A stretch of DNA of 64,000 bases from a virus (taxonomy: Duplodnaviria; Caudoviricetes): the IMG/VR virus record IMGVR_UViG_3300036803_000035, positions 793-64,792 of that record; one strand, 5' to 3'. The position numbers were made by a program, and so were the translations under genes. Under the pieces are notes generated by a model that worked only from the letters and a program-made list of their open reading frames with translations, was not told where the DNA came from and did not search any database. Position 1 is the first letter of the stretch; each line of letters opens with the position of its first letter. Below, piece by piece: positions 1,933-28,869 of the stretch.

Positions 1933-2373
1933 ATGAAAGTCGGGCTGCTCCGTCGCCTGCGCACGCTGGCGTCTCAAATGCGTTACGCGAGCACCGCCGA
2001 CGGGCTCGAATGGTACGCGCGCGAGATCGCCAGGACGATTGCAGAGGCGGACGCGACGTCCAAGGCATCGCCAGATATGGGGCACCATTGCCACTCGCCT
2101 CGCGCGGATGTGCACAACCTCCCACCAACGGGATCGGTTCACCCGAGCTCAGCGACCGATGGCCTGAACGCCGCGCCGCCTACCGAGATCGCGAATTCGC
2201 CGGCGCCGATAGCAGTCAACAAACCGGCGCCAGCCGAGCCCGGCGTGAGAAATGTTCCACGTGAAACATCGCGTGGTCAACGGGGCAAGCACCCGATCTT
2301 CGAGGATGATCCGCGCGCCGTCGCCGAATGCGAACGCGATCGCCGGCAATCGGCGTTTCGACCGTGGGCATGA
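1933..2373 (+). CDS. Hypothetical protein containing the parS site (encodes NVPRET)
   Basis: ORF track; its stop overlaps the next ATG. Confidence 0.45.
   Translation: MKVGLLRRLRTLASQMRYASTADGLEWYAREIARTIAEADATSKASPDMGHHCHSPRADVHNLPPTGSVHPSSATDGLNAAPPTEIANSPAPIAVNKPAPAEPGVRNVPRETSRGQRGKHPIFEDDPRAVAECERDRRQSAFRPWA
2253..2268. promoter_or_regulatory. parS: parS centromere site (TGTTCCACGTGAAACA)
   Basis: Exact 16/16 match to the bacterial consensus TGTTNCACGTGAAACA. An AT-rich near-palindrome in a GC-rich background. Confidence 0.8.
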
Positions 2374-3138: not shown

Positions 3139-3216
3139 CGCCGCGCGCTGCTCGGGGTTGTGCGTTGCCTTAGTGGTCCCCGGCAGTTCCAACCGTGCCA
3201 CCGAGTAGCGCGCACC

Positions 3217-3579
3217 ATGCGACAGCCGAACGGCCGCAGCGCGGCGGCAATGCAGTATCGCCTGTGGTATCGCACGCGAGAGTGGGCACGGCTGCGCGCT
3301 GATCAGCTGGCTCGCGAACCTTGGTGCGAGTTCTGCCTTGCGATGGAGCGACGCACGCCGGCGACCGTTGCTGATCACCGCAGGCCTCACCGTGGTGATG
3401 CACGCCTGTTCTTCGACTCGGGCAACCTGCAATCGCTCTGCGCAACGCACCACGACAGCACGAAGGCACGAGCCGAGCGAGGCGGTCGCGTGACGATCGC
3501 AGTCGGTCGCGACGGCTGGCCGAAAGCAATCTCGGGACAGGGGGTAGGGGGTTTCCCGACCAAGGGGGGCAGCGGCTGA
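3217..3579 (+). CDS. HNH endonuclease (HK97 gp74-like packaging cofactor)
   Basis: WYRTREWARLRADQLAREPWCEFC...ATVADHRRPHRGD..LFFD..NLQSLC..HHDSTK. Confidence 0.9.
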   Translation: MRQPNGRSAAAMQYRLWYRTREWARLRADQLAREPWCEFCLAMERRTPATVADHRRPHRGDARLFFDSGNLQSLCATHHDSTKARAERGGRVTIAVGRDGWPKAISGQGVGGFPTKGGSG

Positions 3580-3702: not shown

Positions 3703-4296
3703 ATGGCTGCAAGGAAGAAGCCGCCGGCGACACCGCCGGCGCCGCCGGCGGGACCGCGTCTCGCCGACAAGATCGTGCCGCGCGCGATCGCCGACCTGGT
3801 GCCGTACGCCAACAACGCGCGCACCCATTCGAAGCGGCAGGTTCAGCAGATCGCCGCCTCGATCAAGGAATTCGGGTTCACGAACCCCGTCCTGGTCGAC
3901 GCCGCCGGCGGGATCGTCGCCGGCCACGGCCGCGTGCTCGGCGCTCAGCTGTTGAAGATGCCCCAGGTGCCGACGATCGACGTCGGCTATCTGACCGAGG
4001 CGCAGCGCAAAGCCTACGTCCTGGCCGACAATAAGCTGGCGCTCAACGCCGGCTGGGATGTCGAGCTCCTCGGCGTCGAGCTCGGCGGGATCCTCGAGCT
4101 CGGCATTGATTCGGAGCTCGTCGGGTTCAGCGCCAAAGAGGTCGAGCGGATCACCGGCAAAAGCGACGGGCTCGATCCCGACGACATGCAGGACAGCTTC
4201 GAAATCCTGGTCGAGTGCACCGACGAGCCGCAGCAGCGCGCCCTGTTGGAGCGCCTCGCCGGCGAGGGGTACAAATGCAAATCACTGCTCCGCTGA
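3703..4296 (+). CDS. ParB/Srx N-terminal-domain protein of the type linked to phage DNA-modification genes
   Basis: LVPYANNARTHSKRQVQQIAASIKEFGFTNPVLVD...IVAGHGRVLGA...AYVLADNKLALNAGWD. No ParB HTH or dimerisation domain follows. Confidence 0.9.
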   Translation: MAARKKPPATPPAPPAGPRLADKIVPRAIADLVPYANNARTHSKRQVQQIAASIKEFGFTNPVLVDAAGGIVAGHGRVLGAQLLKMPQVPTIDVGYLTEAQRKAYVLADNKLALNAGWDVELLGVELGGILELGIDSELVGFSAKEVERITGKSDGLDPDDMQDSFEILVECTDEPQQRALLERLAGEGYKCKSLLR

Positions 4297-5399
4297 CCGC
4301 CGACATCGAGCGGAGCTCGCCGATCGCGCGATCCGGTCGCGTCATGCAGCTGGAAGGCATCTTCGATGTCCCGCCCAGCGAGCGATCGGCCGTGTCGTGG
4401 CACGTCTCGCTGCCGCTGCATGAACGCCCCTGGAACATCGGCCTGATCGTGGGCCCCTCGGGCTGCGGCAAGACGACGATCGCGAAGCACCTGTTCGGCG
4501 AGGCCTACGTTCGCGGCTTCGAATGGGACCCGAGCCGGTCCCTGGTCGATGACTTTCCGCAGGACATGAGCGTGAAGGAAATCACGCTGCTGATGTCCTC
4601 GGTGGGGTTTTCGAGCCCGCCATCCTGGGTTCGGCCGTTTCACGTGCTGTCCAACGGCGAGCAATTTCGCGCCGCGATGGCGCGCTCGCTCGCTGAAATG
4701 CGCGACCTGTGCGTCATGGACGAATTCACGTCGGTGGTCGATCGCACGGTGGCGCAGCTGGGGAGCGCGGCGATCGCCAAGACGGTGCGCCGACGCGGTC
4801 AGAAGTTCATCGCGGTGACCTGTCATTACGACGTCGAGGACTGGCTCGATCCCGATTGGGTGTTCGAGCCGGCGACGAACTCCTTCCGATGGAGGTTACT
4901 TCGGCGACGACCAGCAATCGAGCTCGCGATCTCGCGGGTCCATCATTCGGCATGGAAGCTATTCGCACCGCATCACTATCTGACGCGCTCGCTCAATCCG
5001 TCGGCGCGGTGCTTTTGCGCTTTCATCGATGAACGGCCGGTCGCCTTTCACGCGCTGCTGCCGTTCCTCGGTCGGTTGAGCAGCCGCAAAAAGGCCTATC
5101 GCGGTCACCGCTGCGTCGTGTTGCCCGACTTCCAGGGCGCCGGCATCGGCAATGCGCTCATGACGACGGACGCCTCGATCTTCGCCGCGCTCGGCTATCG
5201 CGTGTTTCGCCCGACCGGGCATCCGGCCGAGATCGCCTCGGCCTCGCGCGATCCGAATTGGCGCATGATCCGCAAGCCGAGCATGGTCGGTCACGACACC
5301 GATCGGCGCATCGCGCGAGCGACAGGGCGGCTCACCGCCAGTTTCGAGTTTGTGGGGACCCCGATGCCGATCGACGCGGCGCGGGCGATGGTGGCATGA
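4275..5399 (+). CDS. ABC-type ATPase fused to a GNAT (Mom-like) acyltransferase
   Basis: Walker A GPSGCGKTT, signature LSNGEQFR, Walker B VMDEF, H-loop VTCH. C-terminal W..FAPHHYL and GNAT motif A VVLPDFQGAGIG. No membrane partner. Confidence 0.85.
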   Translation: MQITAPLTADIERSSPIARSGRVMQLEGIFDVPPSERSAVSWHVSLPLHERPWNIGLIVGPSGCGKTTIAKHLFGEAYVRGFEWDPSRSLVDDFPQDMSVKEITLLMSSVGFSSPPSWVRPFHVLSNGEQFRAAMARSLAEMRDLCVMDEFTSVVDRTVAQLGSAAIAKTVRRRGQKFIAVTCHYDVEDWLDPDWVFEPATNSFRWRLLRRRPAIELAISRVHHSAWKLFAPHHYLTRSLNPSARCFCAFIDERPVAFHALLPFLGRLSSRKKAYRGHRCVVLPDFQGAGIGNALMTTDASIFAALGYRVFRPTGHPAEIASASRDPNWRMIRKPSMVGHDTDRRIARATGRLTASFEFVGTPMPIDAARAMVA

Positions 5400-6907
5400 G
5401 ACTCGCCCATCAGCTGTTGCTCGACCGCCCGGCGGTCCGCGCCGGCATCGCGTTGATGCACGGCGTCGCCGGATTTGACACTTATGCCGAGCTCTGCGAC
5501 CAGGTGCGCCGCGCCGCGACGGGGCTGCGCTCGCTCGGTTTGCAGCGTGGCGATCGCGTCGCGATCTTCCTCGACAAACGCCCCGAGACGGTCGCCGCGA
5601 TGTTCGCGACGATGGCCGCCGGCGGCGTCATGGTGCCGATCAACCCGGCGCTCAAGCCGCGCCAGGTCAAACACATCCTGACCGATTGCGAGGCGCGCTT
5701 CCTCGTCTCGACCGATCGCCTGCTCTCGGCGAGCGGCTCGACGGTGGTCCTGTCCGACCTGACGCTCGGGAAGCATCGCAATTGGTGTCAGCTGTACCTG
5801 TGCGACCCGAGCGAGCCGTCGCCGGCGATCGACCGGGACATGGCGGCGATCCTCTACACGTCGGGCAGCACCGGGCACCCCAAGGGGGTTGTCCTCTCGC
5901 ACCGCAACATCGTCGCCGGCGCCGAGAGTGTCGCCGAATATCTGCGGCTGAGCGCGAGCGATCGCCTGCTGGCCGTCCTGCCGCTTTCCTTCGATGCCGG
6001 GCTGAGCCAGCTGACAACCGCTTTCGTCGCCGGCGCCAGCGTCGTGCTTCTCAACTACGCCGGCCCCGAGGACCTGGTGCGCGCCTGCGCCCGTCACGGC
6101 GTGACCGGGATCACCGCGGTGCCGACCCTGTGGGGATCGCTCGCTCGCGTCGAGTGGCCTGCAGGTGCCCGGCGAGCACTGCGCTTCTTCGCCAATACCG
6201 GCGGCGCGATGCCGACCGATACCCTCACGCGGCTGCGCGCGCTGTTCCCCGACGCCGAGCCCTTCCTGATGTACGGGCTGACCGAAGCCTTTCGCTCGAC
6301 CTATTTGGATCCCCGCGAAGTCGATCGACGGCCGCTGTCGATCGGCAAGGCGATCCCCGGCGCCGAGGTCCTGGTCGTGCGGCCGAACGGCGAGCTCTGC
6401 GGCCCCGACGAGCTCGGCGAGCTCGTGCATCGCGGTCCGACCGTCGCGCTCGGCTACTGGAACGATCGCGAGCGAACCGCCGAGCGCTTCCGGCCGGCGC
6501 CCGGGCAGCCGCGACAGATGCCGCTTCCCGAGATCGCCGTGTGGTCGGGCGACCTGGTGCGCCGCGACGCCGAGGGCTTCCTGTATTTCGTCGGGCGCCG
6601 AGACGATCAGATCAAAACGTCGGGCTACCGCGTGAGCCCGGTGGAGATCGAGGAGGTCGCGATGGCGAGCGGGCTGATCTCCGCGGCCGCGGCGATCGGC
6701 GTCTCGCACCCGAAACTCGGGCAGGCAATCGTCCTTTACGTGATCGCCGCCGGCGAGCTCGACGCGAGCGCGCTGCTGGCGCATTGCGAGCGCGAATTGC
6801 CCCGATACATGATCCCGCAGCGGATCGAAGCGCGCGCGACCCTGCCCCTGAACGCCAATGGCAAGATCGATCGCAAAGCGCTCGCGCTCGACGTTAAGGA
6901 TCGTTAA
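5396..6907 (+). CDS. AMP-forming acyl-CoA ligase (adenylate-forming superfamily; resembles the exosortase A-associated type)
   Basis: LYTSGSTGHPKG, YGLTE, SGDLVRRDAEGFLYFVGRRDDQIK, NANGKIDRKAL. Its ATG at 5396 overlaps the GNAT stop. Confidence 0.9.
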   Translation: MRLAHQLLLDRPAVRAGIALMHGVAGFDTYAELCDQVRRAATGLRSLGLQRGDRVAIFLDKRPETVAAMFATMAAGGVMVPINPALKPRQVKHILTDCEARFLVSTDRLLSASGSTVVLSDLTLGKHRNWCQLYLCDPSEPSPAIDRDMAAILYTSGSTGHPKGVVLSHRNIVAGAESVAEYLRLSASDRLLAVLPLSFDAGLSQLTTAFVAGASVVLLNYAGPEDLVRACARHGVTGITAVPTLWGSLARVEWPAGARRALRFFANTGGAMPTDTLTRLRALFPDAEPFLMYGLTEAFRSTYLDPREVDRRPLSIGKAIPGAEVLVVRPNGELCGPDELGELVHRGPTVALGYWNDRERTAERFRPAPGQPRQMPLPEIAVWSGDLVRRDAEGFLYFVGRRDDQIKTSGYRVSPVEIEEVAMASGLISAAAAIGVSHPKLGQAIVLYVIAAGELDASALLAHCERELPRYMIPQRIEARATLPLNANGKIDRKALALDVKDR

Positions 6908-6911
6908 GGAT
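6892..6911. repeat. 10-bp perfect tandem duplication (CGTTAAGGAT x2)
   Basis: Read directly; the second copy supplies the ligase TAA stop. Confidence 0.9.
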
Positions 6912-6973
6912 CGACCCCCTTCCCAGGTCGATTTTAAGCGCCGCCAGAGGGCGGGAAGCGCCTGGGCTCTCAC

Positions 6974-7101
6974 TTGAGCGACCCTGATCGCTTCCCCCTC
7001 TGTGGCGAGCCCTGGCAGCGCCGCCCGACGTCTCCGATCGATCGCCCTCATAGGGGCGCGTGGGGCGCGCTCTGAGAGGGGAAAGCGCTCGGGTCACTCG
7101 A
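6974..7101. repeat. Imperfect inverted repeat with arms of about 28 bp, in the convergent intergenic gap
   Basis: ttgagcgaccctgatcgcttccccctc pairs with gaggggaaagcgctcgggtcactcga. Confidence 0.6.
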
Positions 7102-7155
7102 CAGCGCGCGATCCCGCTTCGCTCGCCAGCGAGCGCCGCCCGCGACCGCTGGGCC

Positions 7156-7188
7156 AAAAAAAAGCCCCCGCGATCTCTCGCGAGGGCT
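7156..7188 (-). terminator. Rho-independent terminator closing the leftward array
   Basis: Minus strand reads AGCCCTCGCGA-GAGA-TCGCGGGGGCT followed by a T run. Confidence 0.85.
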
Positions 7189-7194
7189 GATCTT

Positions 7195-7467
7195 CTATCG
7201 TCGCGGCGATCGTCGCCGTTCGATGCCGTGCCGATCGGCGACGCGCTGCGCTGCTGCCTCGAAGGCTTGATCGCGCGTCAGCGGCACTCTGTGGTCGCGG
7301 AGATCGACGAGGCGGGTTGCGAGTCGACTCTTGCCGACCATCGCTCGCTCCCAGCCCGGTTTCTTTTGATGCCCGTCCCACGTCGCGCACCGCTGTAGAC
7401 AGGCGATCGCCATGTTGAGCTCGGACAGGCTCAAGATCGGCTGATAGAAGCGATCGTCATCGGTCAT
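7195..7467 (-). CDS. Hypothetical protein
   Basis: ATG at 7467 overlaps the upstream stop; GGAG RBS. Confidence 0.55.
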   Translation of the reverse strand: MTDDDRFYQPILSLSELNMAIACLQRCATWDGHQKKPGWERAMVGKSRLATRLVDLRDHRVPLTRDQAFEAAAQRVADRHGIERRRSPRR

Positions 7468-7667
7468 GGGCGCGCTCCTGTCCGCAGCTGGTCGATCAAA
7501 CACACCGCGATCGCCCCGACGTGATCGACACGGCGTCGGTGCGGGCGCAGCTGTTTCAATTCGTAAGTCATCGCGAGCCCCAGCACTTCGATCGCGTCGG
7601 TCGGGCGCATGTCCTCGATCGCGCGGATCAGCGCAAGCGAGCGCTTGCCTTTCTCTGCATCGGTCAT
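7464..7667 (-). CDS. Hypothetical protein
   Basis: ATGA-coupled; GGAGG RBS. Confidence 0.6.
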   Translation of the reverse strand: MTDAEKGKRSLALIRAIEDMRPTDAIEVLGLAMTYELKQLRPHRRRVDHVGAIAVCLIDQLRTGARP

Positions 7668-8059
7668 TCGACGCCTCCTGCCGCCAGCTGAATTGAGCGA
7701 ACGCGCACCGAGTGCTCGTTTCGCGGGATGCCGAACTCGCTCGACATGATCTCGGCGATCCGCCGAAACTTGTGCCCGGCGATCTCAAGATCGAGGAGCC
7801 GCCGATCGTGCTCCTCAGAGTACGGATAGCGCTTCTGCCCGTTGGCGCATTGATACGGGCGCGGCGCGCGACGCGGCGGCTTATCCCAATACCCCGCTCG
7901 CAGCATGTACCAGTGCACGGTCGCCGGGTGTCGGTTGAGACGCAGCGCGATCTTACTCGGCGCCGGATCGGTCATCGTTTCGCATAGCCGATTGATCTCG
8001 GCCTTTTCCTCGGGCGACATTCGCCCGCGCTTGATCGTGTCATATCGCTGCGCGGTCAT
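7664..8059 (-). CDS. Protein with two Myb/GcrA-like HTH repeats
   Basis: RGRMSPEEKAEINRL...IALRLNRHPATV and YSEEHDRRLLDL...FRRIAEIM...RNEHSVRVR. AGGAGATC RBS. Confidence 0.55.
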   Translation of the reverse strand: MTAQRYDTIKRGRMSPEEKAEINRLCETMTDPAPSKIALRLNRHPATVHWYMLRAGYWDKPPRRAPRPYQCANGQKRYPYSEEHDRRLLDLEIAGHKFRRIAEIMSSEFGIPRNEHSVRVRSIQLAAGGVE

Positions 8060-8301
8060 CGCGATCTCCTCGGCAAGCGATCGTCGCGAATGACGGTGCG
8101 CAACACGGCGAGGCTTTCTTTCGCGTATTGCGCCGGCGAGGCGTCGAGCACCGCCCAAATCTTCGGCAGCTGTTCACTCAACCGCAGCCATGCGAGCGCG
8201 GCTGCAATCTCAGTGGCGCGCCCGTTTTCGCGTTGATAGTGAAGTTCCTCCGCTGCGACTTCGCATAGCCGTCGCGGGCTTATCCTGTTGCGCTTGGTCA
8301 T
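8056..8301 (-). CDS. Hypothetical protein
   Basis: GGAGATCACC RBS. Confidence 0.65.
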   Translation of the reverse strand: MTKRNRISPRRLCEVAAEELHYQRENGRATEIAAALAWLRLSEQLPKIWAVLDASPAQYAKESLAVLRTVIRDDRLPRRSR

Positions 8302-8501
8302 GGTGATCTCCGTTTCATCTTCGAGGGTCCGCCGGTAAGCGGGACGTCATGCGGCACGGCGCGACAGAGCGCCCCGTAATCGACGAGCATCGCCTCGACG
8401 GCGGCGAGCTCGACGGTGATCATCTTCGTCCCGCGTCGAGTGCGGGCGCATTGCTGGGTCACGTGATCCAGCTGCGCATCGGTGAGGGTCAATTCGATCA
8501 T
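8298..8501 (-). CDS. Hypothetical protein
   Basis: Overlap-coupled to both neighbours. Confidence 0.6.
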   Translation of the reverse strand: MIELTLTDAQLDHVTQQCARTRRGTKMITVELAAVEAMLVDYGALCRAVPHDVPLTGGPSKMKRRSP

Positions 8502-8689
8502 TCGCTCTCTCCGAGCGCGCGGCGCGCGGCGCTGTAGGCGCGTCGCATGGAGATCGGAATGTGATCGACGCTCGCGACCTTGTTGCAGAGATCGGCATAG
8601 GCTGAGACGAAGTCGCGCAACGCGCCCTCCATCGCCACGCGGCGTCGCTTGATCGCTTGCGCAATGTCGTTTGTTGTCGGGTCTGTCAT
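8498..8689 (-). CDS. Hypothetical protein
   Basis: AGGAGATCACCC RBS. Confidence 0.65.
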   Translation of the reverse strand: MTDPTTNDIAQAIKRRRVAMEGALRDFVSAYADLCNKVASVDHIPISMRRAYSAARRALGESE

Positions 8690-8737
8690 GGGTGATCTCC
8701 TGAGAGGGATGCGAGCGCCGAAGCGCCCGCCCCGTTG

Positions 8738-8911
8738 CTACGGCACGATCTCGATTACGACATAGCTTTTCGGCTTGTCGCCGCCGAACACGGCGCCTTG
8801 CATGTTGTCGAGGGCGCCGTCGAGCTCGGCGTTGGGGACGTTGCCCGCCATGTCGCGCACCTGTTCGACGGTGAGCGTGACCAATTCCAGATCGTCATCG
8901 TTGATGTTCAT
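8738..8911 (-). CDS. Small hypothetical protein (57 aa; below the ORF-track cutoff)
   Basis: AGGAGATCACGCG-ATG; translates as MNINDDDLELVTLTVEQVRDMAG...YVVIEIVP. Confidence 0.6.
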   Translation of the reverse strand: MNINDDDLELVTLTVEQVRDMAGNVPNAELDGALDNMQGAVFGGDKPKSYVVIEIVP

Positions 8912-8935
8912 CGCGTGATCTCCTAGCCGACGGGT

Positions 8936-9157
8936 TTAGAAGCGAGCGCGGATCGATGTCGGCATTCTCGACACCGCGCCCTTGAACTCGTCGAGCATCC
9001 GTCGCCAGCCGGGTGACGGGTTTCTGAGCGCGATCGTCAGATGCGCGATCGGCCCATCCTTTTCGGCAAGCAACACGACCAATGCGCGAACGGCTTCATC
9101 CAGCCGAGCAATCGACTCGATCAGCCGCTCGGTGCGTTCGATTTCGGCTTGGGTCAT
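8936..9157 (-). CDS. Hypothetical protein
   Basis: AGGAGATCACC RBS. Confidence 0.6.
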   Translation of the reverse strand: MTQAEIERTERLIESIARLDEAVRALVVLLAEKDGPIAHLTIALRNPSPGWRRMLDEFKGAVSRMPTSIRARF

Positions 9158-9405
9158 GGTGATCTCCTCGCGTTGGTGTTACCGATCGGGGCGCCCGGCT
9201 TTGCGGGCGCCAATCGCCAGCGATAGCGGCGGCAGATGTTGCGAATGTTGTCCGCCGAGCGCGGGTGCATCATCGTCGCGATCTCGCGCGCGGTGTAGCC
9301 AGCGCCCGCCATGATCTCGATCAGGTCGAGCTCGACGGGGCTATAGGGTCGATTGGGCGGGCGGTTCGTTTTGTGATATGCGCGCCCGCAGCGAGGGCAC
9401 GCCAT
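9154..9405 (-). CDS. Small HTH protein with N-terminal CPRC and C-terminal GAPIGNTNA motif
   Basis: YSPVELDLIEIMAGAGYTAREIA...RSADNIRN; TGATG overlap with the upstream gene. Confidence 0.55.
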   Translation of the reverse strand: MACPRCGRAYHKTNRPPNRPYSPVELDLIEIMAGAGYTAREIATMMHPRSADNIRNICRRYRWRLAPAKPGAPIGNTNARRSP

Positions 9406-9821
9406 CACTCGCCCTCCTTCGCCGGCTCGTTGATGTTCATGTGGATCGCTTCGGCCGCCAACGCGGCGGCGTCGTCGAGATCGGACCAATCGATGCTCGC
9501 GCCGTCTCGCGCGCCGCGCTGATACGCGATGCAGAGTAGACGACAGGCGCGGATCGCTTTCTCGTTGTTCGGCTGCGGCCAGAAGCCAAGTTGATCGTGC
9601 AGCGTCGGCGTCGCCAGCTTGATCAGCGCGTCGGCGATCGCCGGCGCAGCGGTCATCGGCAGCGGGATTTGACAGCTGTTCGATGATGCGCCACGCGAGT
9701 CGATCGGATAGAGGAGCAATTCGTCAGGGCGCGCCGCCATGATATGAAGTCCGGTCGTGTTCATGAAGCGATTGCGACCGAGACTGAGATTGCGGCAGCG
9801 CTTTCCGTAATCGATTTTCAT
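9405..9821 (-). CDS. Hypothetical protein
   Basis: GGAGATCACCCA RBS. Confidence 0.55.
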   Translation of the reverse strand: MKIDYGKRCRNLSLGRNRFMNTTGLHIMAARPDELLLYPIDSRGASSNSCQIPLPMTAAPAIADALIKLATPTLHDQLGFWPQPNNEKAIRACRLLCIAYQRGARDGASIDWSDLDDAAALAAEAIHMNINEPAKEGE

Positions 9822-9913
9822 TGGGTGATCTCCGTTCGTTGCCGGCGTTTCTGGCGCCGGGGTGCAAGGCGCACCGGATAGCCTCGCGCGATGTCGGGGC
9901 TATGCGCTGCGCC

Positions 9914-10282
9914 CTACTCGGGCGGCAGCAGTCGTAATCGGATCATGGCGATCTCGGTGCCCGGCGCGAGCTCGCCGTAGTGCGAAGCGAGATCGATCCC
10001 GTCGAGGATCGGGTCGCCGACGCGCGCGATCTCGAATGCTTCGACTTTCGCGAGGCGCGAGGGGTAGCGTTTCAGATTGTAGTTGTAGGCGAGGCGCGCG
10101 ATGCGCCCGACGTAAAACACCCCTTCGGTGAACGGCGCGCGATGTCGCCGATACTCGACAGTCTTTTCGCCGCTGATGAACCGCTGGTAGATCGGTTTCA
10201 GCACGACGATCATCGGCGCTTTCAAATTTATGGGGAGCATGGCATTATCCAGTTGGGTCCCGCTGCGGCGGGACTTTCGCAT
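9914..10282 (-). CDS. ASCH (PUA-like) domain protein
   Basis: LKPIYQRFISGEKTVEYR matches the ASCH G.KT.E.R motif. Confidence 0.7.
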   Translation of the reverse strand: MRKSRRSGTQLDNAMLPINLKAPMIVVLKPIYQRFISGEKTVEYRRHRAPFTEGVFYVGRIARLAYNYNLKRYPSRLAKVEAFEIARVGDPILDGIDLASHYGELAPGTEIAMIRLRLLPPE

Positions 10283-10340
10283 GGATTGATCTCCGAATGC
10301 GAGGCGGGGCGGGCGTTTCTGGCGCCCGCCCTTTTCGCGT

Positions 10341-11501
10341 TCAATCGATCAGGCGGATGACTTCGCCCCACGGCGCGTTGACGCCGGCGGTCGAGCACCA
10401 CAGGACGGGGTATGGCGGCTCGGGTCCGAAGTCTTGGCAGTCGAGATCGGTAAAGTAGATCGCGCAAATCGGCTCGATGCCCGCTTCGGCGATCGCCTCG
10501 AATGCCGGGCGGAACTTCGTGCCGCCGCGACCCTTCATCGTCTTGCCGACAATCGGACCATCTTCTGGCGTGAACACGGCGTGATGATGGACTTTGGTGT
10601 CGCACTCGAAATAATCGACCGCTTCGGGCTGGACATCCTCGATCACGCTGTTGAACTCGCCGAGGCTTTCTTCGAGCGCTTTCCTCTCCATGCTGGCTGA
10701 CGTGTCGGTGATCCACGCGATGCGCCCGACCTTCTCGCTGTAGAGCGACGGCAGGAAAATGTTCTGCGAGACGAAGCGGCGGTTCGGTCGCGTCCAATCG
10801 TAATCCTCATGGGCGCGCTCGCGGACGAAGCGCTTCAATGCCTCGCGCCAATCGACGCGCGACTTTTTCATCGCGTCCACGACTTCCTCTAATTCGCCGG
10901 AGAGATCGCCGGAGCGCTTGGCGACGGACGCGGCTTGCATCGTCGCAATCGCCCAATCGCGCGCCAGCTGTTGCTGCTGATCTGGCGACATGGGTTGCTT
11001 CTTCTGCGGGTCTTTCGGATCGCCGGGCTGGCTGAACACGCCGCAGCCGCCGACATTGCCCGACTTGCCGCCGCCGCCGCCTTTCGGTTTCGGCGGCAGC
11101 TTCGCATAGACTTCCTCGGCTGACATGCCGGCATACTGCGGATCGAGCAGCGCGCCGTCGGGCAACGTGACGCCGGCATCCTCGAGGATTTTGTTGATCA
11201 CGTAATCGCAAGCCTCGTTGAAGCGCTCATGCTCGCGATTGCCGAGCCGCATCGGATGACCGGCGGCGCAGTGCATCGTCTCGTGGGCGACGAGGCCGAC
11301 GCGCTGATCATGCGTCATGTTGCGGACGAAGTCGGGGTTATAGCGCATCGTGATGCCGTCCACGTCGGCGGTTTCGACACTCGGCGTTGGCACCATTTTG
11401 AGTCGCAGCGCGAGCGTTCCGAAGAACACGAATGCCGGGTTGAGGATCAGCGAAGTGCGCGCCTTGATCATGAGGCGCTCGACGTCGGAATAATCGGTCA
11501 T
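10341..11501 (-). CDS. DUF2201-type protein: HExxH metallopeptidase-like domain plus C-terminal vWA domain
   Basis: TADVDGITMRYNPDF...LVAHETMH...NEACDYVIN; ITDTSASM (MIDAS-like), GRGGTKFRP, IYFTDL. RBS-supported start at 11501. Confidence 0.85.
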   Translation of the reverse strand: MTDYSDVERLMIKARTSLILNPAFVFFGTLALRLKMVPTPSVETADVDGITMRYNPDFVRNMTHDQRVGLVAHETMHCAAGHPMRLGNREHERFNEACDYVINKILEDAGVTLPDGALLDPQYAGMSAEEVYAKLPPKPKGGGGGKSGNVGGCGVFSQPGDPKDPQKKQPMSPDQQQQLARDWAIATMQAASVAKRSGDLSGELEEVVDAMKKSRVDWREALKRFVRERAHEDYDWTRPNRRFVSQNIFLPSLYSEKVGRIAWITDTSASMERKALEESLGEFNSVIEDVQPEAVDYFECDTKVHHHAVFTPEDGPIVGKTMKGRGGTKFRPAFEAIAEAGIEPICAIYFTDLDCQDFGPEPPYPVLWCSTAGVNAPWGEVIRLID

Positions 11502-11526
11502 GGGGTTGATCTCCTGTTGAACGGGT

Positions 11527-12399
11527 TCACGCCATAAAGTCGGAGACGTCTTTGAGGATCGCCTCGGCTTTCTTGGCGACAGCGCGGCGCTTTTTCGCAT
11601 CGTCGCGCAATTCGGGCGCGCTCACTTCGAGCAATTCCTCGGAGAGGCGTTGGCGTATCACTTCGAGGCTGTTGCTGTTGGTGACATTGAGCGCGGGCAG
11701 TATGTCGACCAATTCGCGGATGTTCTCGACAAGCGAGTCGCGAAAGGTGTTCTGCACCTTGCCGTCATCGTCCACGTGATAGGCTTTCAATCGCTCGGTC
11801 ATGTGGCCGACGTGTTTCGCGATCCGCTCCCACACGTCGCGAACGCAACCCTGCGCCGCTTCGCCGAGCCGCGCTTCAAGCTGTTCGCGGACGCGCTTTT
11901 CTTCCATGTCGCCGAGGGCGATGCGGAAGTCCTCCGCCTCGGGCAGCGGCATGACATCGATCGCATAGGCGAACTTGCGCTGCATGTCGCTGATCGATGG
12001 GTAGTCGCTCGCTTTGAACATCGTGCCGAGCGCTTTTTTGGCTTCGGTGATGACGTCGGGATATTCGGTCAGGAATTGCGCGACGGCGGTATCGAACTGC
12101 GCCTTGAACGCATTCTGCCGCTGCATGTAATCGAAGTAGGACGCGGCGGGCAGGATGCGCGCGCCATTGTCGAGCCACGGCAGCGTGTTTTCGTAGTGGT
12201 GATACCGCGCGCCCTTCCCGAGCTCCCGCAGCTTGTCGAGCCGCTCGGCAGCGACCAGCCGTTTATTGAAGCGACCGGCGCCGTCATGGGCGCCGGCATC
12301 GCGGATCACTTTCTCGGTGATCGCGCGATCGGTGATCGATGCTTGCCAGCGCGAAATGCGGACTGAGACGAGCATCGCCTTTTCGGTAAGTGTCGTCAT
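11527..12399 (-). CDS. DUF3150-like protein
   Basis: MTTLTEKAMLVSVRISRW...TLPWLDNGARILP...DYPS; lies between the AAA and vWA genes; AGGAGATCACC RBS. Family label is from memory. Confidence 0.55.
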   Translation of the reverse strand: MTTLTEKAMLVSVRISRWQASITDRAITEKVIRDAGAHDGAGRFNKRLVAAERLDKLRELGKGARYHHYENTLPWLDNGARILPAASYFDYMQRQNAFKAQFDTAVAQFLTEYPDVITEAKKALGTMFKASDYPSISDMQRKFAYAIDVMPLPEAEDFRIALGDMEEKRVREQLEARLGEAAQGCVRDVWERIAKHVGHMTERLKAYHVDDDGKVQNTFRDSLVENIRELVDILPALNVTNSNSLEVIRQRLSEELLEVSAPELRDDAKKRRAVAKKAEAILKDVSDFMA

Positions 12400-12425
12400 G
12401 GTGATCTCCTCAATGTGCGGGCGGC

Positions 12426-13427
12426 TCAGCCCATGATGTCGGAATTTTCGCTCGCGTATTTGATGAAGGCTTTGGTGTGCTCCACTTCGGGGCGCAGCCG
12501 CGCGCTGTCTTTGATGCAGTAGACGCCCCATTCCTTCGGCATCCGATCGACATAGCGCACGACGCGGTCGAAGTTGGTTTCGGTGGCCTTGCGCGCGAGT
12601 CCCGTTGCGATCGCGAGGCACGGCCCCGGATCGGTCGGCACTTTCGCTTTGTCGGGGTTGAGCAAGATGCCGTCGAGCGATGGCAGCTGGCGGTAGATTT
12701 GCAGGAAGCCGGCGAGCTCGCCCGCCGGTCCGCTGCCCACTGCACCTTCGAGCATCGGCAATTCGATCGTCGGCTTGATACCCTTCGCGAGGATCTGGCT
12801 GACAAACTGCCACGAGCGCGGCGACGGGTAGGACTTCTCGGTCGATTGGCGATCGTAGGCGTGCAACAGGTGCGGTCGAAAACGGATGAACGCGACCAAT
12901 TCGGGCGCGATGTCGTGATCGAGCGCCCACGTGCACCAATCGTTCACGTCAGGGACGAAGGTCGCGTGGAGGAAGCGGTTCGCTTGCGCTTCGGTCATCC
13001 GCGTGACGCCGCGATAGCTGTCGGGGTTGCCGGCGGCGATCATCGCGACTTTCGGCGGCAGCACATAATCGCCGGTGCGGCGATCCAGTGTCAGCTGCAA
13101 CAGCGAGTTTTGCACGAGCGTCGCGCCGCGATTGATCTCGTCGAAGAAGATCACGACATCATCATTCGGATCGCTCGGCAGCCAATCGGGTGCCGCCCAA
13201 TGCGAGCGACCGTCGCCGTTGATATGCGGCAGACCCCGAATGTCGGTCGCGTCAAGCTGCGCCGATCGGATGTCGATAAGTCGCCGCTTCAACTTCGAAC
13301 AGGCTTGGGCGACAAGCTGCGACTTGCCGACACCAGCCTCGCCCTCGATGTAAAGCGGGCGCTGCAATTCGATGCAGAGAATGATCACGTCGAGAAGGTC
13401 GGAAGGTTTCATCATTGCTACGGGCAT
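12426..13427 (-). CDS. MoxR-like AAA+ ATPase
   Basis: Walker A GEAGVGKS, Walker B IFFDEINR, IAAGN, ANRFLH, PSPRSW. Confidence 0.9.
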   Translation of the reverse strand: MPVAMMKPSDLLDVIILCIELQRPLYIEGEAGVGKSQLVAQACSKLKRRLIDIRSAQLDATDIRGLPHINGDGRSHWAAPDWLPSDPNDDVVIFFDEINRGATLVQNSLLQLTLDRRTGDYVLPPKVAMIAAGNPDSYRGVTRMTEAQANRFLHATFVPDVNDWCTWALDHDIAPELVAFIRFRPHLLHAYDRQSTEKSYPSPRSWQFVSQILAKGIKPTIELPMLEGAVGSGPAGELAGFLQIYRQLPSLDGILLNPDKAKVPTDPGPCLAIATGLARKATETNFDRVVRYVDRMPKEWGVYCIKDSARLRPEVEHTKAFIKYASENSDIMG

Positions 13428-13440
13428 GGTTGATCTCCTG

Positions 13441-13707
13441 TTAGAGGGTGATGATCAGCACGTCGCGGCGGGATGCCATGACGTGATCGTGTAGACGGTC
13501 GCGGAGAATGTGGAGCGGGCAGTCGTATTGCTCGCTCCATATCTGCAACCAATTTGGCGTCGCTTGCACACCGCCGCGCTCCCACGCGGTGATGCACGTG
13601 CCGGCGCCTCTCTCGAAAAGCACGACGCGGAATGTCCCGCGATCGTGCCGCTTCTCCGTTATGCGCGCTTTCAACGCGCCGCTCGGATGTTCGATCGTGA
13701 TGGTCAT
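13441..13707 (-). CDS. Hypothetical protein
   Basis: ATGA-coupled start at 13707. Confidence 0.5.
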   Translation of the reverse strand: MTITIEHPSGALKARITEKRHDRGTFRVVLFERGAGTCITAWERGGVQATPNWLQIWSEQYDCPLHILRDRLHDHVMASRRDVLIITL

Positions 13708-13946
13708 CGGCACAATTCCTCGGGACCGAAGCGGCGAGGCGACATCTGCCCCCTTTCCCACACCGTGACGATGTACGGATCGGGCTTGCCGTTCGAACCG
13801 GCATCAAATTCGAACATGCCCTTGGTGCGAAGCGCCTCGACGATTTCGGCGACTTCATACTCGATGCTCTCGGCGAGCGCGGCGATGGTGCAGACATCGT
13901 CGCCAACTTGGACGCGCGTTCTGCCGGTGATGTTGTTGACTGTCAT
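13704..13946 (-). CDS. Hypothetical protein
   Basis: GGAGATCACC RBS. Confidence 0.6.
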   Translation of the reverse strand: MTVNNITGRTRVQVGDDVCTIAALAESIEYEVAEIVEALRTKGMFEFDAGSNGKPDPYIVTVWERGQMSPRRFGPEELCR

Positions 13947-14559: not shown

Positions 14560-14748
14560 AGATTTTTCTCTGCGTCGCGACTTGACTCGGATTTCACACC
14601 GTTACTTCGGTCGGGCTCTATGAGCGCGGAAGCATTGCGGCTCTCGGCAGAGTGGCATTCGTCGAGGGCTCTTTTCTTAGCGTCGATCGCAGCTGGGTGG
14701 ATCGCTGGGTCGCTTGCGCGACTGTGAGACGCTCTTTTTCTTGCGCTC

Positions 14749-14777
14749 ATTATCTCTTATGGCGTCTCAGGGGTCAC
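14749..14777 (-). promoter_or_regulatory. Candidate sigma70 promoter for the leftward array
   Basis: Minus strand GTGACC-N17-GATAAT in an AT-richer divergent intergenic region. Confidence 0.45.
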
Positions 14778-14917
14778 CTGAAAAACGAGCGCGTTCAATA
14801 GGCGTTTTCCGCAGTTTCCCGCGGCTCCCAGGAAATCGCTTCGGTTTCGAACGATCGGGAGCGCTGGGAGGGGTTTTCGCGACCCCCCGCGCTGGTCGCG
14901 TGATCAGTCGAGGCAAC

Positions 14918-15403
14918 GTGTCGCGAGGTCGCAAACCGAAGCCGTCTTATCTGCGCATTGTCGGCGGCAATGCAGGACGTCGCCCGCTCAATACCCGCGA
15001 GCCGACGGCGCCGCTCAGCGTGCCCTCGCCGCCGTCGATCTTATACGGCGACGCGAAGTTGGAATGGCGGCGCGTGGCGCGCTCGCTCGCCGAGATGGGC
15101 GTCCTGTCATCGATCGATCGCGCGGCGCTCGCCGCCTACTGCCAAGCCTACGGGGTTTGGTTGCAGGCCGAGCGTCACATCAAAACGCTCGCCGACAGCG
15201 GCGACAAATACGGCGGGCTGCTGACCAAGACCACCAACGGCAACGTGATCCAGAACCCGCTCGTCGGCATCGCCAACAAGGCGCGCGCCGACATGGTCCG
15301 CTTCGCTGCCGAGTTTGGAATGACGCCGAGTGGTCGCAGCCGTGTCCAGATCGACCCGAACGCAAAGCAAAAGCAGGCGGACCCCGCCCGCAAGTATTTC
15401 TGA
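14918..15403 (+). CDS. terS: Terminase small subunit (P27 family)
   Basis: GRKPKP..LRIVGGNAGRRPLN...P.PP...EWRRV..L...GVL..IDRAALAAYC...NPLV...FGMTPSGRSR. Confidence 0.92.
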   Translation: MSRGRKPKPSYLRIVGGNAGRRPLNTREPTAPLSVPSPPSILYGDAKLEWRRVARSLAEMGVLSSIDRAALAAYCQAYGVWLQAERHIKTLADSGDKYGGLLTKTTNGNVIQNPLVGIANKARADMVRFAAEFGMTPSGRSRVQIDPNAKQKQADPARKYF

Positions 15404-26716: not shown

Positions 26717-27250
26717 ATGCCCGAATTCGGGCCACGGACGAGCGACGAGGACATCGCCGCTCTCCGTGCGCTCGTCTCACGGCTGCACCGCCCGCGTGTC
26801 ATCGAAATCGGGTCCTGGCTCGGTCGCACCGCGCTCGCGATGCGCCAGGCCGGGGCCGACCAGGTGCATTGCGTTGATACCTGGCTCGGCACCGACGATC
26901 CGACCGATCTGACCTTCGAGCTCGGCCGCCATCATGGTCACGCCGGGCTCCTGCGCGCCTTTTGCGAGAACGTCGGCGAGGACCTCGGGGTCGGGGTTTT
27001 CCCGTATGTCGGCGAGTCGATCTTTTGGGCGGCGCACTGGCAATGGCAAGCCGATCTGATCTTCATCGACGCCACGCACTCCTACGAGGCCGCGATCGCC
27101 GACATCCGCGCCTGGACGCCGCACGTGCGCAAGGGCGGGATCCTCTGCGGCCACGACTATTGCCCCGCCTGGCCGGGCGTTAAACGCGCCGTGCAGGAAA
27201 CCGGCGGCTTTCAGGTCAACGCCACCGTTTGGTGGCGCCTCGTCATGTGA
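26717..27250 (+). CDS. Class I SAM-dependent methyltransferase (Methyltransf_24-like)
   Basis: VIEIGSWLGRT, HCVDTW, DLIFIDATHSYE...DI..W...VRKGGILCGHDY...WPGV..AV. Confidence 0.9.
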   Translation: MPEFGPRTSDEDIAALRALVSRLHRPRVIEIGSWLGRTALAMRQAGADQVHCVDTWLGTDDPTDLTFELGRHHGHAGLLRAFCENVGEDLGVGVFPYVGESIFWAAHWQWQADLIFIDATHSYEAAIADIRAWTPHVRKGGILCGHDYCPAWPGVKRAVQETGGFQVNATVWWRLVM

Positions 27251-27427
27251 TCCGCGGTCGCCAACCCCGCGGGGGGCCCGATCCGCAGTGTTGCCCCTGG
27301 CGCTGCGGGTCGGGTCGGCGACCGAGTCTCGAGTTTTTTGGCGGTCCGGAAATCCGGACTCGCGAGCAAAGCCGCCGCCGATATCGGTGATAACCGGTTG
27401 TCAACGCGCCCGCCTTACGGTCGCTCG

Positions 27428-27637
27428 ATGAACCGACGTCGCCGGGGGCGGACGATCGCGGTGCCGGCGGTGCTGAGCGCCGAATTCGATGAGCGCTATC
27501 GCGCCGCTCGGGCAGTCGATCCCGAGCGAGCCCAGCGCTTGCTCGACCTTGAGGTTCGCCGGCAAGGCGTGGTCTGCGCCGCACCGGTTCGGGCGCGGCG
27601 ATCGCGCCGTATCGGCCACAACCGAGGCGCACGATGA
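27428..27637 (+). CDS. Hypothetical protein
   Basis: In-frame part of ORF 27338..27637; its stop overlaps the radical SAM ATG. Confidence 0.4.
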   Translation: MNRRRRGRTIAVPAVLSAEFDERYRAARAVDPERAQRLLDLEVRRQGVVCAAPVRARRSRRIGHNRGAR

Positions 27638-28869
27638 CCGACGGGGTTTACCGTCATCCGCCGGGCAAGCTGAGCCGCTGGGGCGTCGTCGATGTCGGGC
27701 TGAAATGCCCGCATTCCTGCCAGTTTTGCTACTACGTCCATCTCGACGGCGCCGAGGACCCGTTCAGCGGGATGCGCCGCGCCAAGTTTCATTCGACCGG
27801 CCACATCCTCGAACTCGCCCGCGCGCTCAAAACGGCCGACTTTGTCGGCTTCGATGTGACCGGCGGCGAGCCCAGCTTGCACCCGGGGATCGTCGATCTC
27901 GCGGTCGAGGCCAAGCGGCTCGACCTGGCCATGCGCGTCATCACGCTGGGTCAATTCCTGACCCGCAAGGTGCCGGCCTCCGGCAGCGATACGCTATTGG
28001 ACGCGCTGCTCAAGGCCGGCGTCGCCGACTTCCTGCTCTCGGTTCACGCCGTCGAGGAGGAGCAATATCACCGGATCACCGGCGGCAGCTGGGCGAAGCT
28101 GCTGCAGGCCATGCGCGAGCTCGACCGCGCCGGCTTCGACTACTGCACCAACACGACCGTCCACGAGGGCAATTTCCGCGAGCTCCCGGCGATCGCCGAC
28201 GAGATCGCCAGCCACCGGGTCTATGTCGCCAACCTCATCATCATGAATGCCTACTACGCCTGGTCGCGGCCGGGCGCCGAGGCGCAGGGCGTCCAGGCGC
28301 ATTATTCGGCGGTCCGCCCCTACGTGCTCGAAGCGCGCGACCGGCTCGAAGCGGCCGGCATCGCGGTCAACGTCCGATATGCGCCGCTCTGCACGATGCG
28401 CGGGGCCGAGCGCAACCTGGTGGGCATTGTGGGGGTCAGACACGATCCGCACGAATGGATGAACGCGATCGACCACATCGAGCCGCGATCGCCGAGCTCG
28501 ATGGGTCAGCGCCTCGCCCTGCAGGACCACGACGCCGGCGCGCCCTTCATCCCGGCCCCGCCCGGCGAGATGATCACCGTCGGCGGCCGGCCGCTGCCTC
28601 TCCTGGCGCGGCGCCACGGCAAGGTCTTTCCGAGCTCCTGTCGCGGCTGCGCGGCCGCCTATGTCTGCGACGGCGTCGATCCGCGCTATCTCGCCGAGCG
28701 CGGCGATCACGAGCTCGAACCCTACAGCACGTTCCGCGGCGACCTCATCGATCGGGAGCGGCTGGCCTACCAACCCGCCTTCATCTGCAAAACGGCCCCG
28801 CTGGCGCCCGCCCGTGAGGCTGTGAGGGCCGCTTTCAATCGGGGGGACAATGTGGCTGCTGCCGAGTAA
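27634..28869 (+). CDS. Radical SAM enzyme with C-terminal auxiliary Cys cluster (SPASM/twitch-like)
   Basis: CPHSCQFC (CxxxCxxC), TGGEPSLHP, C-terminal CRGCAAAYVCDG. Confidence 0.9.
   Translation: MTDGVYRHPPGKLSRWGVVDVGLKCPHSCQFCYYVHLDGAEDPFSGMRRAKFHSTGHILELARALKTADFVGFDVTGGEPSLHPGIVDLAVEAKRLDLAMRVITLGQFLTRKVPASGSDTLLDALLKAGVADFLLSVHAVEEEQYHRITGGSWAKLLQAMRELDRAGFDYCTNTTVHEGNFRELPAIADEIASHRVYVANLIIMNAYYAWSRPGAEAQGVQAHYSAVRPYVLEARDRLEAAGIAVNVRYAPLCTMRGAERNLVGIVGVRHDPHEWMNAIDHIEPRSPSSMGQRLALQDHDAGAPFIPAPPGEMITVGGRPLPLLARRHGKVFPSSCRGCAAAYVCDGVDPRYLAERGDHELEPYSTFRGDLIDRERLAYQPAFICKTAPLAPAREAVRAAFNRGDNVAAAE

Follow-up and report, generated by a model that had tools for sequence, protein, structure and literature searches.

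A soil-phage ParB-N/ABC::GNAT gene pair joined to an NRPS-like adenylating ligase gene, a candidate source of its acyl donor

Introduction

A gene for a ParB N-terminal-domain (ParB-N) protein followed by one for an ABC-type ATPase with a C-terminal GNAT acyltransferase (ABC::GNAT) forms a known, predicted phage module, PHROG 11143. Our full-text literature searches found no experiment on acyl transfer to DNA by its members and no description of accessory genes. Two better-known enzymes offer analogies for what the pair might do. Mom of phage Mu, a GNAT-like DNA adenine modifier, provides the working analogy, an enzyme of acyltransferase fold whose substrate is a nucleobase; in a comparison by family profiles alone, however, no Mom-named family was among the Pfam and PHROG matches of the proteins studied here. 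TmcA, a tRNA cytidine N4-acetyltransferase that combines an ATPase with a GNAT, is a top fold match and an analogy for ATP-driven acyl transfer to a nucleobase, although its ATPase is RecD-like, whereas that of the phage protein is ABC-type, and a nucleobase as target of the phage protein is a prediction.

One branch of the ABC::GNAT family carries further enzymes behind the pair. It comprises the cultured Rhodococcus phage Jace (gp85–gp88), a Hyphomicrobium prophage and five more distinct viral contigs. A mini CoA-transferase-III-like gene (PF02515) is found only directly after ABC::GNAT (7/7 viral contigs), and an aspartate decarboxylase gene (PF02261) lies between the two in 5/7 contigs; with duplicates merged and the Hyphomicrobium prophage included, the figure is 4/7 distinct elements. 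The cassette genes overlap by 4 nt in three of these loci (L205, L209 and L210). The ABC::GNATs linked to the CoA-transferase form an exclusive clade (support 1.0).

Bacterial adenylating ligases of family TIGR03098, named 'acyl-CoA ligase (AMP-forming), exosortase A system-associated', have a TIGR03099 decarboxylase as partner. In five of five sampled bacterial loci, the gene directly 3' of the ligase gene encodes a PLP decarboxylase and overlaps it by 4 nt; these are polysaccharide loci with glycosyltransferase, sulfotransferase and deacetylase genes, and a carrier protein accompanies the ligase in one of them. Two bacterial loci have small ORFs 5' of the ligase gene, but these lack any family match and are probably spurious. 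In phages, AMP-binding enzymes are extremely scarce. Here we describe a phage in which such a ligase gene follows the ParB-N/ABC::GNAT pair.

Results

The three-gene unit and its surroundings

The source is a complete 64.8-kb soil phage (IMG/VR record IMGVR_UViG_3300036803_000035), of which a stretch of 64,000 nt, hereafter the window, was analysed. Its positions 3703–6907 hold three overlapping rightward genes (Table 1). The original prediction had placed them between the HNH gene and the leftward array, with overlaps of 22 nt between ParB-N and ABC::GNAT and of an ATGA shared by the GNAT stop and the ligase start. On re-reading, the placement and coordinates proved exact: ABC::GNAT starts at the ATG at 4275, and the ATGA is shared because the ligase begins at the ATG at 5396. 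The genes thus stand as one tightly coupled rightward unit, and the terminator of the convergent array, read from 7188 to 7163 on the minus strand, marks where it ends.

Table 1. Features of the three-gene unit and its neighbourhood (window positions)
Feature	Position	Strand	Evidence
HNH endonuclease gene, packaging-associated type	3160..3579	+	phrog_2323 4.1e-28
ParB N-terminal-domain protein	3703..4296	+	197 aa; phrog_620 2.2e-47
ABC-type ATPase::C-terminal GNAT acyltransferase	4275..5399	+	374 aa; phrog_11143 1.9e-101, PF00005, PF00583
Stand-alone NRPS-like adenylating ligase, TIGR03098	5396..6907	+	503 aa; 683.6 bits
10-nt tandem duplication, GTTAAGGATC twice	6893..6912	+	read from sequence
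Intrinsic terminator of convergent leftward array	7163..7188	-	11-pair stem, then seven T
Leftward gene array	7195..13906	-	ORFs; PF13203/PF09967, PF07728 matches
Terminase small subunit (terS)	14714..15403	+	phrog_83 4.6e-41

In a second soil metagenome, of a different study, a 769-nt contig covers 4834–5602 with zero mismatches and so rules out an assembly chimera at the GNAT/ligase junction. At its other end, the ligase gene takes its stop codon from the second GTTAAGGATC copy of the tandem duplication, which may be a 3' recombination scar. Neither the decarboxylase nor the upstream ORF of the bacterial donor loci has left a remnant in the window.

HNH homologues 5' of ParB also occur in L002, L005 and L017–L019. 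The 3' side is less typical. In relatives, terS or terL is normally directly 3' of ABC::GNAT, and terS, terL or a portal gene begins within 0.1–1.3 kb of it in L002, L005 and L038. Here, this direct terminase neighbour is missing: terS lies 9.3 kb away, with the ligase gene and the leftward array interposed, and the segment from 5.4 to 14.7 kb is extra in comparison with those three loci. The array includes a DUF2201 metallopeptidase/vWA gene (PF13203/PF09967) and a MoxR AAA gene (PF07728); among the matches listed, none of 190 ABC::GNAT loci has homologues of it. The lack of a DNA methyltransferase in the window, already noticed, extends to the entire record, where neither PF01555 nor PF00145 finds a match. 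Of 176 ABC::GNAT loci, 19 have an ASCH-domain gene no further than 3 kb downstream; ASCH and Amidoligase_2 neighbours, counted without a base rate for phages in general, are suggestive at most.

ParB-N and ABC::GNAT form an ordinary member of the module

The ParB-N product gives a match (2.8e-46) to the ParB-N portion of phrog_498 'DNA methyltransferase', a weak one to PF02195 and none to an HTH. It is of the same type as the ParB-N domains fused to phage DNA methyltransferases, which bears out the proposed tie to phage DNA modification genes. Of 168 loci among the matches listed, 154 have a ParB homologue immediately 5' of ABC::GNAT.

In ABC::GNAT, the Walker A (GPSGCGKT), signature (LSNGEQ), Walker B (VMDEFTS) and H-loop (CH) motifs are invariant in 19 relatives. 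The same holds for the GNAT motifs that had been pointed out (W..F..HHYL and motif A), that is, W227, F230, H234-Y235-L236 and Q287-G288-x-G290-x-G292, so that the CoA-binding motif is intact. PF00005 is matched, as is PF00583 (4e-6). An AF2 model (pLDDT 76) retrieved GNATs (E 5e-7), TmcA (2zpa, E 4.8e-6) and ABC nucleotide-binding domains in a Foldseek search. Homologues were taken as the best 568 and 576 matches in larger collections; among these listed matches, about 190 share 45–66% identity with the window protein, and none in the viral, genome or metagenome collections exceeds 69%.

By its sequence families, the pair is an ordinary member of the PHROG 11143 module, with which it shares both genes, their order, the overlap habit, the invariant motifs and the position at the packaging end. 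It differs in the 1.5-kb ligase gene joined at its 3' end and in the 7-kb leftward array that parts it from terS; among the matches listed, ligase and array at this place are unique to the window phage. Tight overlap of ABC::GNAT with whatever gene comes next is found in 36 of 156 listed loci. In L038, the closest relative among the matches listed, an unrelated 190-aa gene fills the slot with a 4-nt overlap. The window ABC::GNAT falls outside the CoA-transferase-linked clade; at each of the seven positions that distinguish that clade it shows the plain residue, and it departs from the 90% consensus at two positions, the family median. The GNAT therefore gives no sign of co-adaptation to the ligase.

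The ligase is an intact, NRPS-like enzyme

The third gene had been read as an acyl-CoA ligase. A full AMP-forming enzyme it is, but its sequence identifies it as an NRPS-like amino-acid adenylating enzyme of TIGR03098, separated from its native partners, and what it makes may be something other than a CoA thioester. It scores above the curated cut-off of 592.35 bits and matches PF00501 (1.6e-82) and PF13193. The motifs YTSGSTGHPKG, YGLTE, SGD, GRRDDQIKTSGYRV and NGKIDRK are intact. It is a full-length protein. Of 197 positions that do not vary among 14 bacterial homologues, it retains 180, and D314L is one of the 17 changes; it has an internal 20-residue deletion and a shorter C-terminus relative to TIGR03098 members. 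A truncated N-terminus is ruled out by an alignment that begins at residue 1. Identity to bacterial family members reaches ~60% at best, and GC3 resembles that of the phage.

The best solved relatives by sequence are NRPS A domains, together with stand-alone enzymes that adenylate amino acids or beta-amino acids: LgrA (314 bits), the 3wvn NRPS protein and beta-aminoacyl-ACP synthetases. The likeness includes D200, the A4 'FD' aspartate, which binds the substrate amino group. Unlike A domains, the window ligase is a separate protein, and the phage encodes neither a carrier nor a condensation domain. The bacterial TIGR03098/TIGR03099 system shares with it a full-length ligase with all adenylation motifs; the difference is that here the ligase is phage-encoded and has no decarboxylase, carrier or polysaccharide genes beside it. 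Across the whole record, TIGR03099 has no match, and tblastn recovered no remnant.

The ligase is a one-off among the ABC::GNAT loci examined. Among the matches listed, no ligase stands behind ABC::GNAT in 172 viral or genome loci and 17 metagenome loci with downstream room, and 50 other whole virus records carrying ABC::GNAT have no AMP-binding enzyme. Other TIGR03098-type genes are absent from 2.9 million viral contigs and from GenBank phages, as they are from five genomes with related prophages. A full AMP-forming ligase beside a ParB/ABC::GNAT module is thus unprecedented, as had been suspected. By the criterion proposed along with it, co-location elsewhere, the idea of a ligase serving the GNAT fails: no other examined ABC::GNAT has an AMP-binding enzyme next to it.

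Discussion

The attachment of an adenylating ligase to the end of the gene pair means that the pair may produce its own acyl donor. We infer a DNA target, the donor chemistry and a coupling of ligase and GNAT as follows. The ParB-N protein would recruit the enzyme to DNA, the ABC domain would dimerise upon ATP, and the GNAT would move an acyl group from a thioester donor to phage DNA ahead of packaging. In this one phage lineage, recombination joined a bacterial TIGR03098 ligase gene to the extreme 3' end of the GNAT gene, with which it now appears to be co-transcribed and translationally coupled. From a host metabolite, the ligase would make an amino-acyl or other acyl thioester, or an adenylate, for the GNAT, and this donor would alter or boost the mark. 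The ligase would be the non-homologous counterpart of the aspartate decarboxylase and CoA-transferase cassette of the Jace type.

We favour a functional coupling in which the ligase provides a special donor, and hold it tentatively, at a little less than an even chance. Arguing for it are the exact start/stop overlap with its independently confirmed junction, the intact state of the ligase, and the fact that a type of gene so seldom met in phages stands immediately 3' of one whose enzyme requires an acyl-thioester donor. The sister clade adds a precedent. In the identical slot it holds enzymes of acyl-thioester metabolism coupled by 4-nt overlaps, and behind the Jace cassette come leftward genes before terS is reached, an interrupted layout like that of the window. 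Since an aspartate decarboxylase and a CoA-transferase occupy this slot, ABC::GNATs do recruit donor-making enzymes. The enzymes are nevertheless unrelated (PF02261 and PF02515 versus PF00501 in the window, where no homologue of the CoA-transferase-III-like gene was found), and the cassette recurs with its own ABC::GNAT clade, whereas the window ligase is single. The idea of a dedicated donor supply is therefore upheld as a concept by the sister clade and weakened for this locus by the failed co-location and the unaltered GNAT. Also against coupling are the single instance, the habitual tight overlaps in this operon, including that of the unrelated L038 gene, and the absence from the phage of the decarboxylase that partners the ligase in bacteria, as well as of the carrier present in one sampled locus. 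A complex prediction of ABC::GNAT with the ligase gave no support, which counts neither for nor against coupling.

Somewhat less probable, but a serious possibility, is that the phage captured the ligase gene independently, as a moron or auxiliary metabolic gene, out of a bacterial exosortase-A-type polysaccharide locus; it would use the ParB/ABC::GNAT transcript solely to be expressed, and its product would act on host metabolism. The ligase could, for example, feed or perturb amino-acyl decoration of host exopolysaccharide via a host decarboxylase and carrier. The score above the TIGR03098 cut-off, the consistent pairing of bacterial homologues with a PLP decarboxylase in polysaccharide-type loci, the lack of a ligase at every other ABC::GNAT examined and the unaltered GNAT all fit such a capture, as do the unrelated cargo in L038 and a sugar-tailoring-type cassette at 26.7–30.3 kb (methyltransferase, radical SAM and glycosyltransferase-like genes). 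Against it, neither partner of the bacterial ligase, decarboxylase or carrier, was brought along; the genomes with related prophages have no TIGR03098 gene; it is improbable that a gene so rare in phages should land by chance just where the gene for an acyl-thioester-using enzyme ends; and in the sister clade the slot carries donor-making enzymes.

A separate question, compatible with either reading, concerns the target. That ABC::GNAT acylates a protein (terminase, portal or a host factor) or a small molecule instead of DNA seems unlikely to us, if by no means negligible. The closest solved GNAT folds, among them RimI and phosphinothricin acetyltransferases, are protein or small-molecule N-acetyltransferases, and the literature searches gave no modified base for any module-carrying phage. 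The DNA target is favoured by the ParB-N partner, present at most of the listed loci and a homologue of the ParB-N domain that phage DNA methyltransferases carry, by the ASCH neighbours, by the terminase gene next in relatives, and by the presence of the cytidine-acetylating TmcA among the top fold matches.

Finally, a recent passenger without a role for the phage, a by-product of the rearrangement that placed the 7-kb leftward array before terS, would agree with the singleton status, the stop codon created by the duplication, the 17 altered positions and the extra 5.4–14.7 kb segment, but is improbable given an open frame of 503 codons with every catalytic motif intact, phage-like GC3, an identical sequence in at least two soil metagenomes from different studies, and only ~60% identity to any bacterial homologue, because of which the capture is not fresh.

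Returning to the coupled ligase and GNAT, a wider and rather unlikely extension is that members of the ParB-ABC::GNAT family decorate the bases of phage DNA with amino-acyl groups, by a donor route that differs between lineages: a host thioester in most, beta-alanyl-CoA via their own aspartate decarboxylase and CoA-transferase in the Jace clade, and a captured NRPS-like adenylating enzyme here. If this were true, the product would be a hypermodified base of a new kind, with a side chain selected by an A-domain-type specificity pocket.

Few unexplained gene pairs at the packaging end of phage genomes are as common as ParB-ABC::GNAT, which occurs across many bacterial phyla, and the donor-making enzymes behind ABC::GNAT hint at the identity of the transferred group. 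Since Jace is cultured, the prediction of DNA acylation is open to direct mass spectrometry. Its confirmation would reveal a new class of DNA hypermodification together with a programmable way of varying it, with a bearing on restriction evasion and on DNA-labelling tools.

The three-gene unit and its genome

The window (bases 793-64792 of a 64,792-bp IMG/VR virus record rated complete by CheckV) has a G+C content of about 65%, carries genes for a large terminase, a portal, a major head protein and a tape-measure protein, and belongs to a phage detected in three soil samples. The three overlapping genes of the original prediction, with an HNH gene on the 5′ side and a leftward array on the 3′ side, proved exact in their coordinates and in both overlaps. 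They encode a ParB-N protein, an ABC-type ATPase fused to a GNAT acyltransferase (ABC::GNAT) and an AMP-forming ligase. The GNAT/ligase junction is confirmed by a contig of another soil metagenome, from a different study, which covers positions 4834-5602 with 0 mismatches. Bacterial ligase genes likewise start with ATGA, and thus the TGA ending the phage GNAT is supplied by the first two codons of the ligase itself.

Features of the window and of other ABC::GNAT loci (L handles)
Feature	Location	Remarks
parS-type 16-mer, perfect	window 2253-2268	TGTTCCACGTGAAACA; 1.4 kb upstream of ParB-N gene
HNH endonuclease gene	window 3160-3579	upstream of ParB-N
ParB-N gene	window 3703-4296	start of three-gene unit
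ABC::GNAT gene	window 4275-5399	22-nt overlap with ParB
AMP-forming ligase gene	window 5396-6907	ATG overlaps GNAT stop (ATGA)
10-nt tandem duplication	window 6893-6912	GTTAAGGATC twice; ligase 3′ end
Terminator of leftward array	window 7188-7163	
Leftward array	window, begins 7195	leftward, convergent
DUF2201 metallopeptidase/vWA gene (phrog_1314) and MoxR-type AAA ATPase gene (phrog_1297)	window 10341-13427	in leftward array, one unassigned gene between
Second tailoring cassette	window 26717-30307	between head and tail genes
Methyltransf_24 enzyme	window 26717-27250	
Radical SAM enzyme	window 27634-28869	
Glycosyltransferase-like protein	window 28850-30307	485 aa
ParB / ABC::GNAT / aspartate decarboxylase / mini CoA-transferase-III-like cassette	L204:2947-5712 (Jace gp85-gp88); L205-L211; L113:4950-8772	
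Two tandem ParB-N genes before ABC::GNAT; LAGLIDADG homing endonuclease between ABC::GNAT and CoA-transferase-like gene	L113:3629-4712 and 7062-8033	
ASCH-domain genes	L156:1068-1553; L129:6634-7098; L127:6511-6897; L203:4619-4996	just past ABC::GNAT, usually convergent

ParB-N and ABC::GNAT

The window ParB matches phrog_620 and also the ParB-N portion of another PHROG, which bears the annotation DNA methyltransferase, and ABC::GNAT matches phrog_11143 end to end (2e-101). All ABC motifs are invariant among 19 relatives, as are the GNAT motifs named in the original prediction, all of which are present (W227, F230, HHYL and the CoA-binding motif A). The AlphaFold model of ABC::GNAT (pLDDT 76) predicts an ABC nucleotide-binding domain and, after it, a GNAT fold; its best structural matches are small GNATs and TmcA, an ATPase-GNAT enzyme. 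Across approximately 190 loci gathered from collections of viruses, genomes and metagenomes (174-176 distinct), ParB is the immediate same-strand upstream neighbour in 154 of the 168 with room, and the gene after ABC::GNAT is mostly the small or large terminase subunit. Of 176 loci, 19 have an ASCH-like ORF no more than 3 kb downstream, and one is present somewhere in 17 of 51 virus records; the window's phage has no ASCH-domain gene. Three records (those of L010, L122 and L159; G011, G029 and G043) have an Amidoligase_2 (PF12224) gene in the leftward array, 2.6-3.4 kb past ABC::GNAT, and in every case an ASCH gene accompanies it.

The window pair is an ordinary member of an already known, predicted module, on which no experimental work was found in the literature searched. 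DNA is the target of ABC::GNAT predicted from context, namely the ParB-N type, the ASCH neighbours and a position ahead of the packaging genes. Chance alone would give about 0.04 matches to the parS-type site; no HTH was matched in the phage ParB-N, and therefore a host ParB may read this site.

Identity and rarity of the ligase

The ligase scores 683.6 bits (cut-off 592) on TIGR03098 ('acyl-CoA ligase, exosortase A system-associated'), shares approximately 60% identity with many bacterial members and stands on a deep branch of its own. Its alignment starts at residue 1, no adenylation motif is missing, and 180 of the 197 positions invariant among 14 bacterial homologues are retained. Among proteins of solved structure, those closest to it are NRPS adenylation domains (LgrA, 314 bits) and stand-alone enzymes that adenylate amino acids or beta-amino acids. 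The A4 'FD' aspartate, a residue that binds the amino group of the substrate, is D200 here. On these grounds the name 'acyl-CoA ligase' is nominal. Each of the five sampled bacterial loci has a PLP decarboxylase (ornithine/DAP type; TIGR03099 in both tested) as the next gene, with a 4-nt overlap, among polysaccharide genes, and the Micromonospora locus also encodes a carrier protein. Neither partner, nor a remnant of either, was found in the phage. The ligase reading frame stops within the second copy of the 10-nt duplication, without which it would extend 22 codons further.

The ligase behind ABC::GNAT is a new variant, so far unique to this phage. A tblastn search beside other ABC::GNAT homologues, as originally proposed, covered 172 viral and genome loci offering 1.6 kb or more of downstream sequence and 17 further metagenome loci, and found no ligase homologue in any of them. 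The Pfam AMP-binding model had no match in 50 whole virus records carrying ABC::GNAT (19 at least 90% complete), and no TIGR03098-type protein was found among 2.9 million viral contigs; relatives in GenBank phages are generic only (≤30% identity, mostly doubtful records). In the nearest relatives (loci L002, L005 and L038), terS, terL and portal lie ~0.1-1.3 kb past ABC::GNAT, whereas in the window they are 9.3 kb away, so that it carries the ligase and a 7-kb leftward array in addition. The slot directly downstream of ABC::GNAT holds in L038 a different gene of 190 aa with no known function, likewise with a 4-nt overlap.

A decarboxylase and CoA-transferase-like cassette

Rhodococcus phage Jace shares the window's layout, with ParB (gp85), ABC::GNAT (gp86), slot enzymes (gp87 and gp88), leftward genes and terS. 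Gp87 is a bona fide aspartate decarboxylase (PF02261, 2e-33) and gp88 a short CoA-transferase-family-III-like protein (PF02515), whose invariant Asp143 aligns with the position of the catalytic Asp169 of formyl-CoA transferase. Among GenBank phages the transferase-like gene occurs only in Jace. Its IMG/VR relatives lie on seven contigs, with ABC::GNAT directly upstream in all seven and the decarboxylase between the two in five; it is likewise linked to ABC::GNAT in a Hyphomicrobium prophage (L113). With duplicates merged, the set comprises seven distinct elements, four with the decarboxylase. The contigs range from 47 to 68% G+C, and 4-nt overlaps occur in the cassettes of L205, L209 and L210. 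A tree built from 177 ABC::GNATs places those linked to the transferase in a clade that contains no others (support 1.0). ABC::GNATs have thus recruited enzymes with the potential to make a dedicated acyl-CoA, which in Jace would plausibly be beta-alanyl-CoA. No published description of this cassette was found.

Is the ligase coupled to the GNAT?

The original prediction, partly supported here, had the ligase supply a dedicated acyl donor to the GNAT. Recruitment of possible donor-making enzymes by the sister clade favours this idea, but the ligase is a single instance, and we place functional coupling just short of an even call. An extremely rare kind of phage gene stands exactly behind an acyl-thioester-requiring enzyme, translationally coupled to it, in the slot that holds donor-making enzymes in the sister clade. 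Against coupling, overlaps are habitual in this operon (36 of 156 loci), the natural ligase partners are missing, and the GNAT shows no sign of co-adaptation: each of its seven clade-specific positions has the plain residue, and its departures from consensus are at the family median. The further polysaccharide-type tailoring genes at 26.7-30.3 kb also count against coupling and fit a captured, host-directed gene.

That the ligase is such a captured gene, acting independently of the GNAT, is somewhat less likely than coupling, and that it is a functionless passenger is quite improbable.

Jace is a cultured phage, and the dedicated-donor reading predicts that its DNA would carry an acyl adduct, perhaps beta-alanyl, dependent on gp86-gp88.
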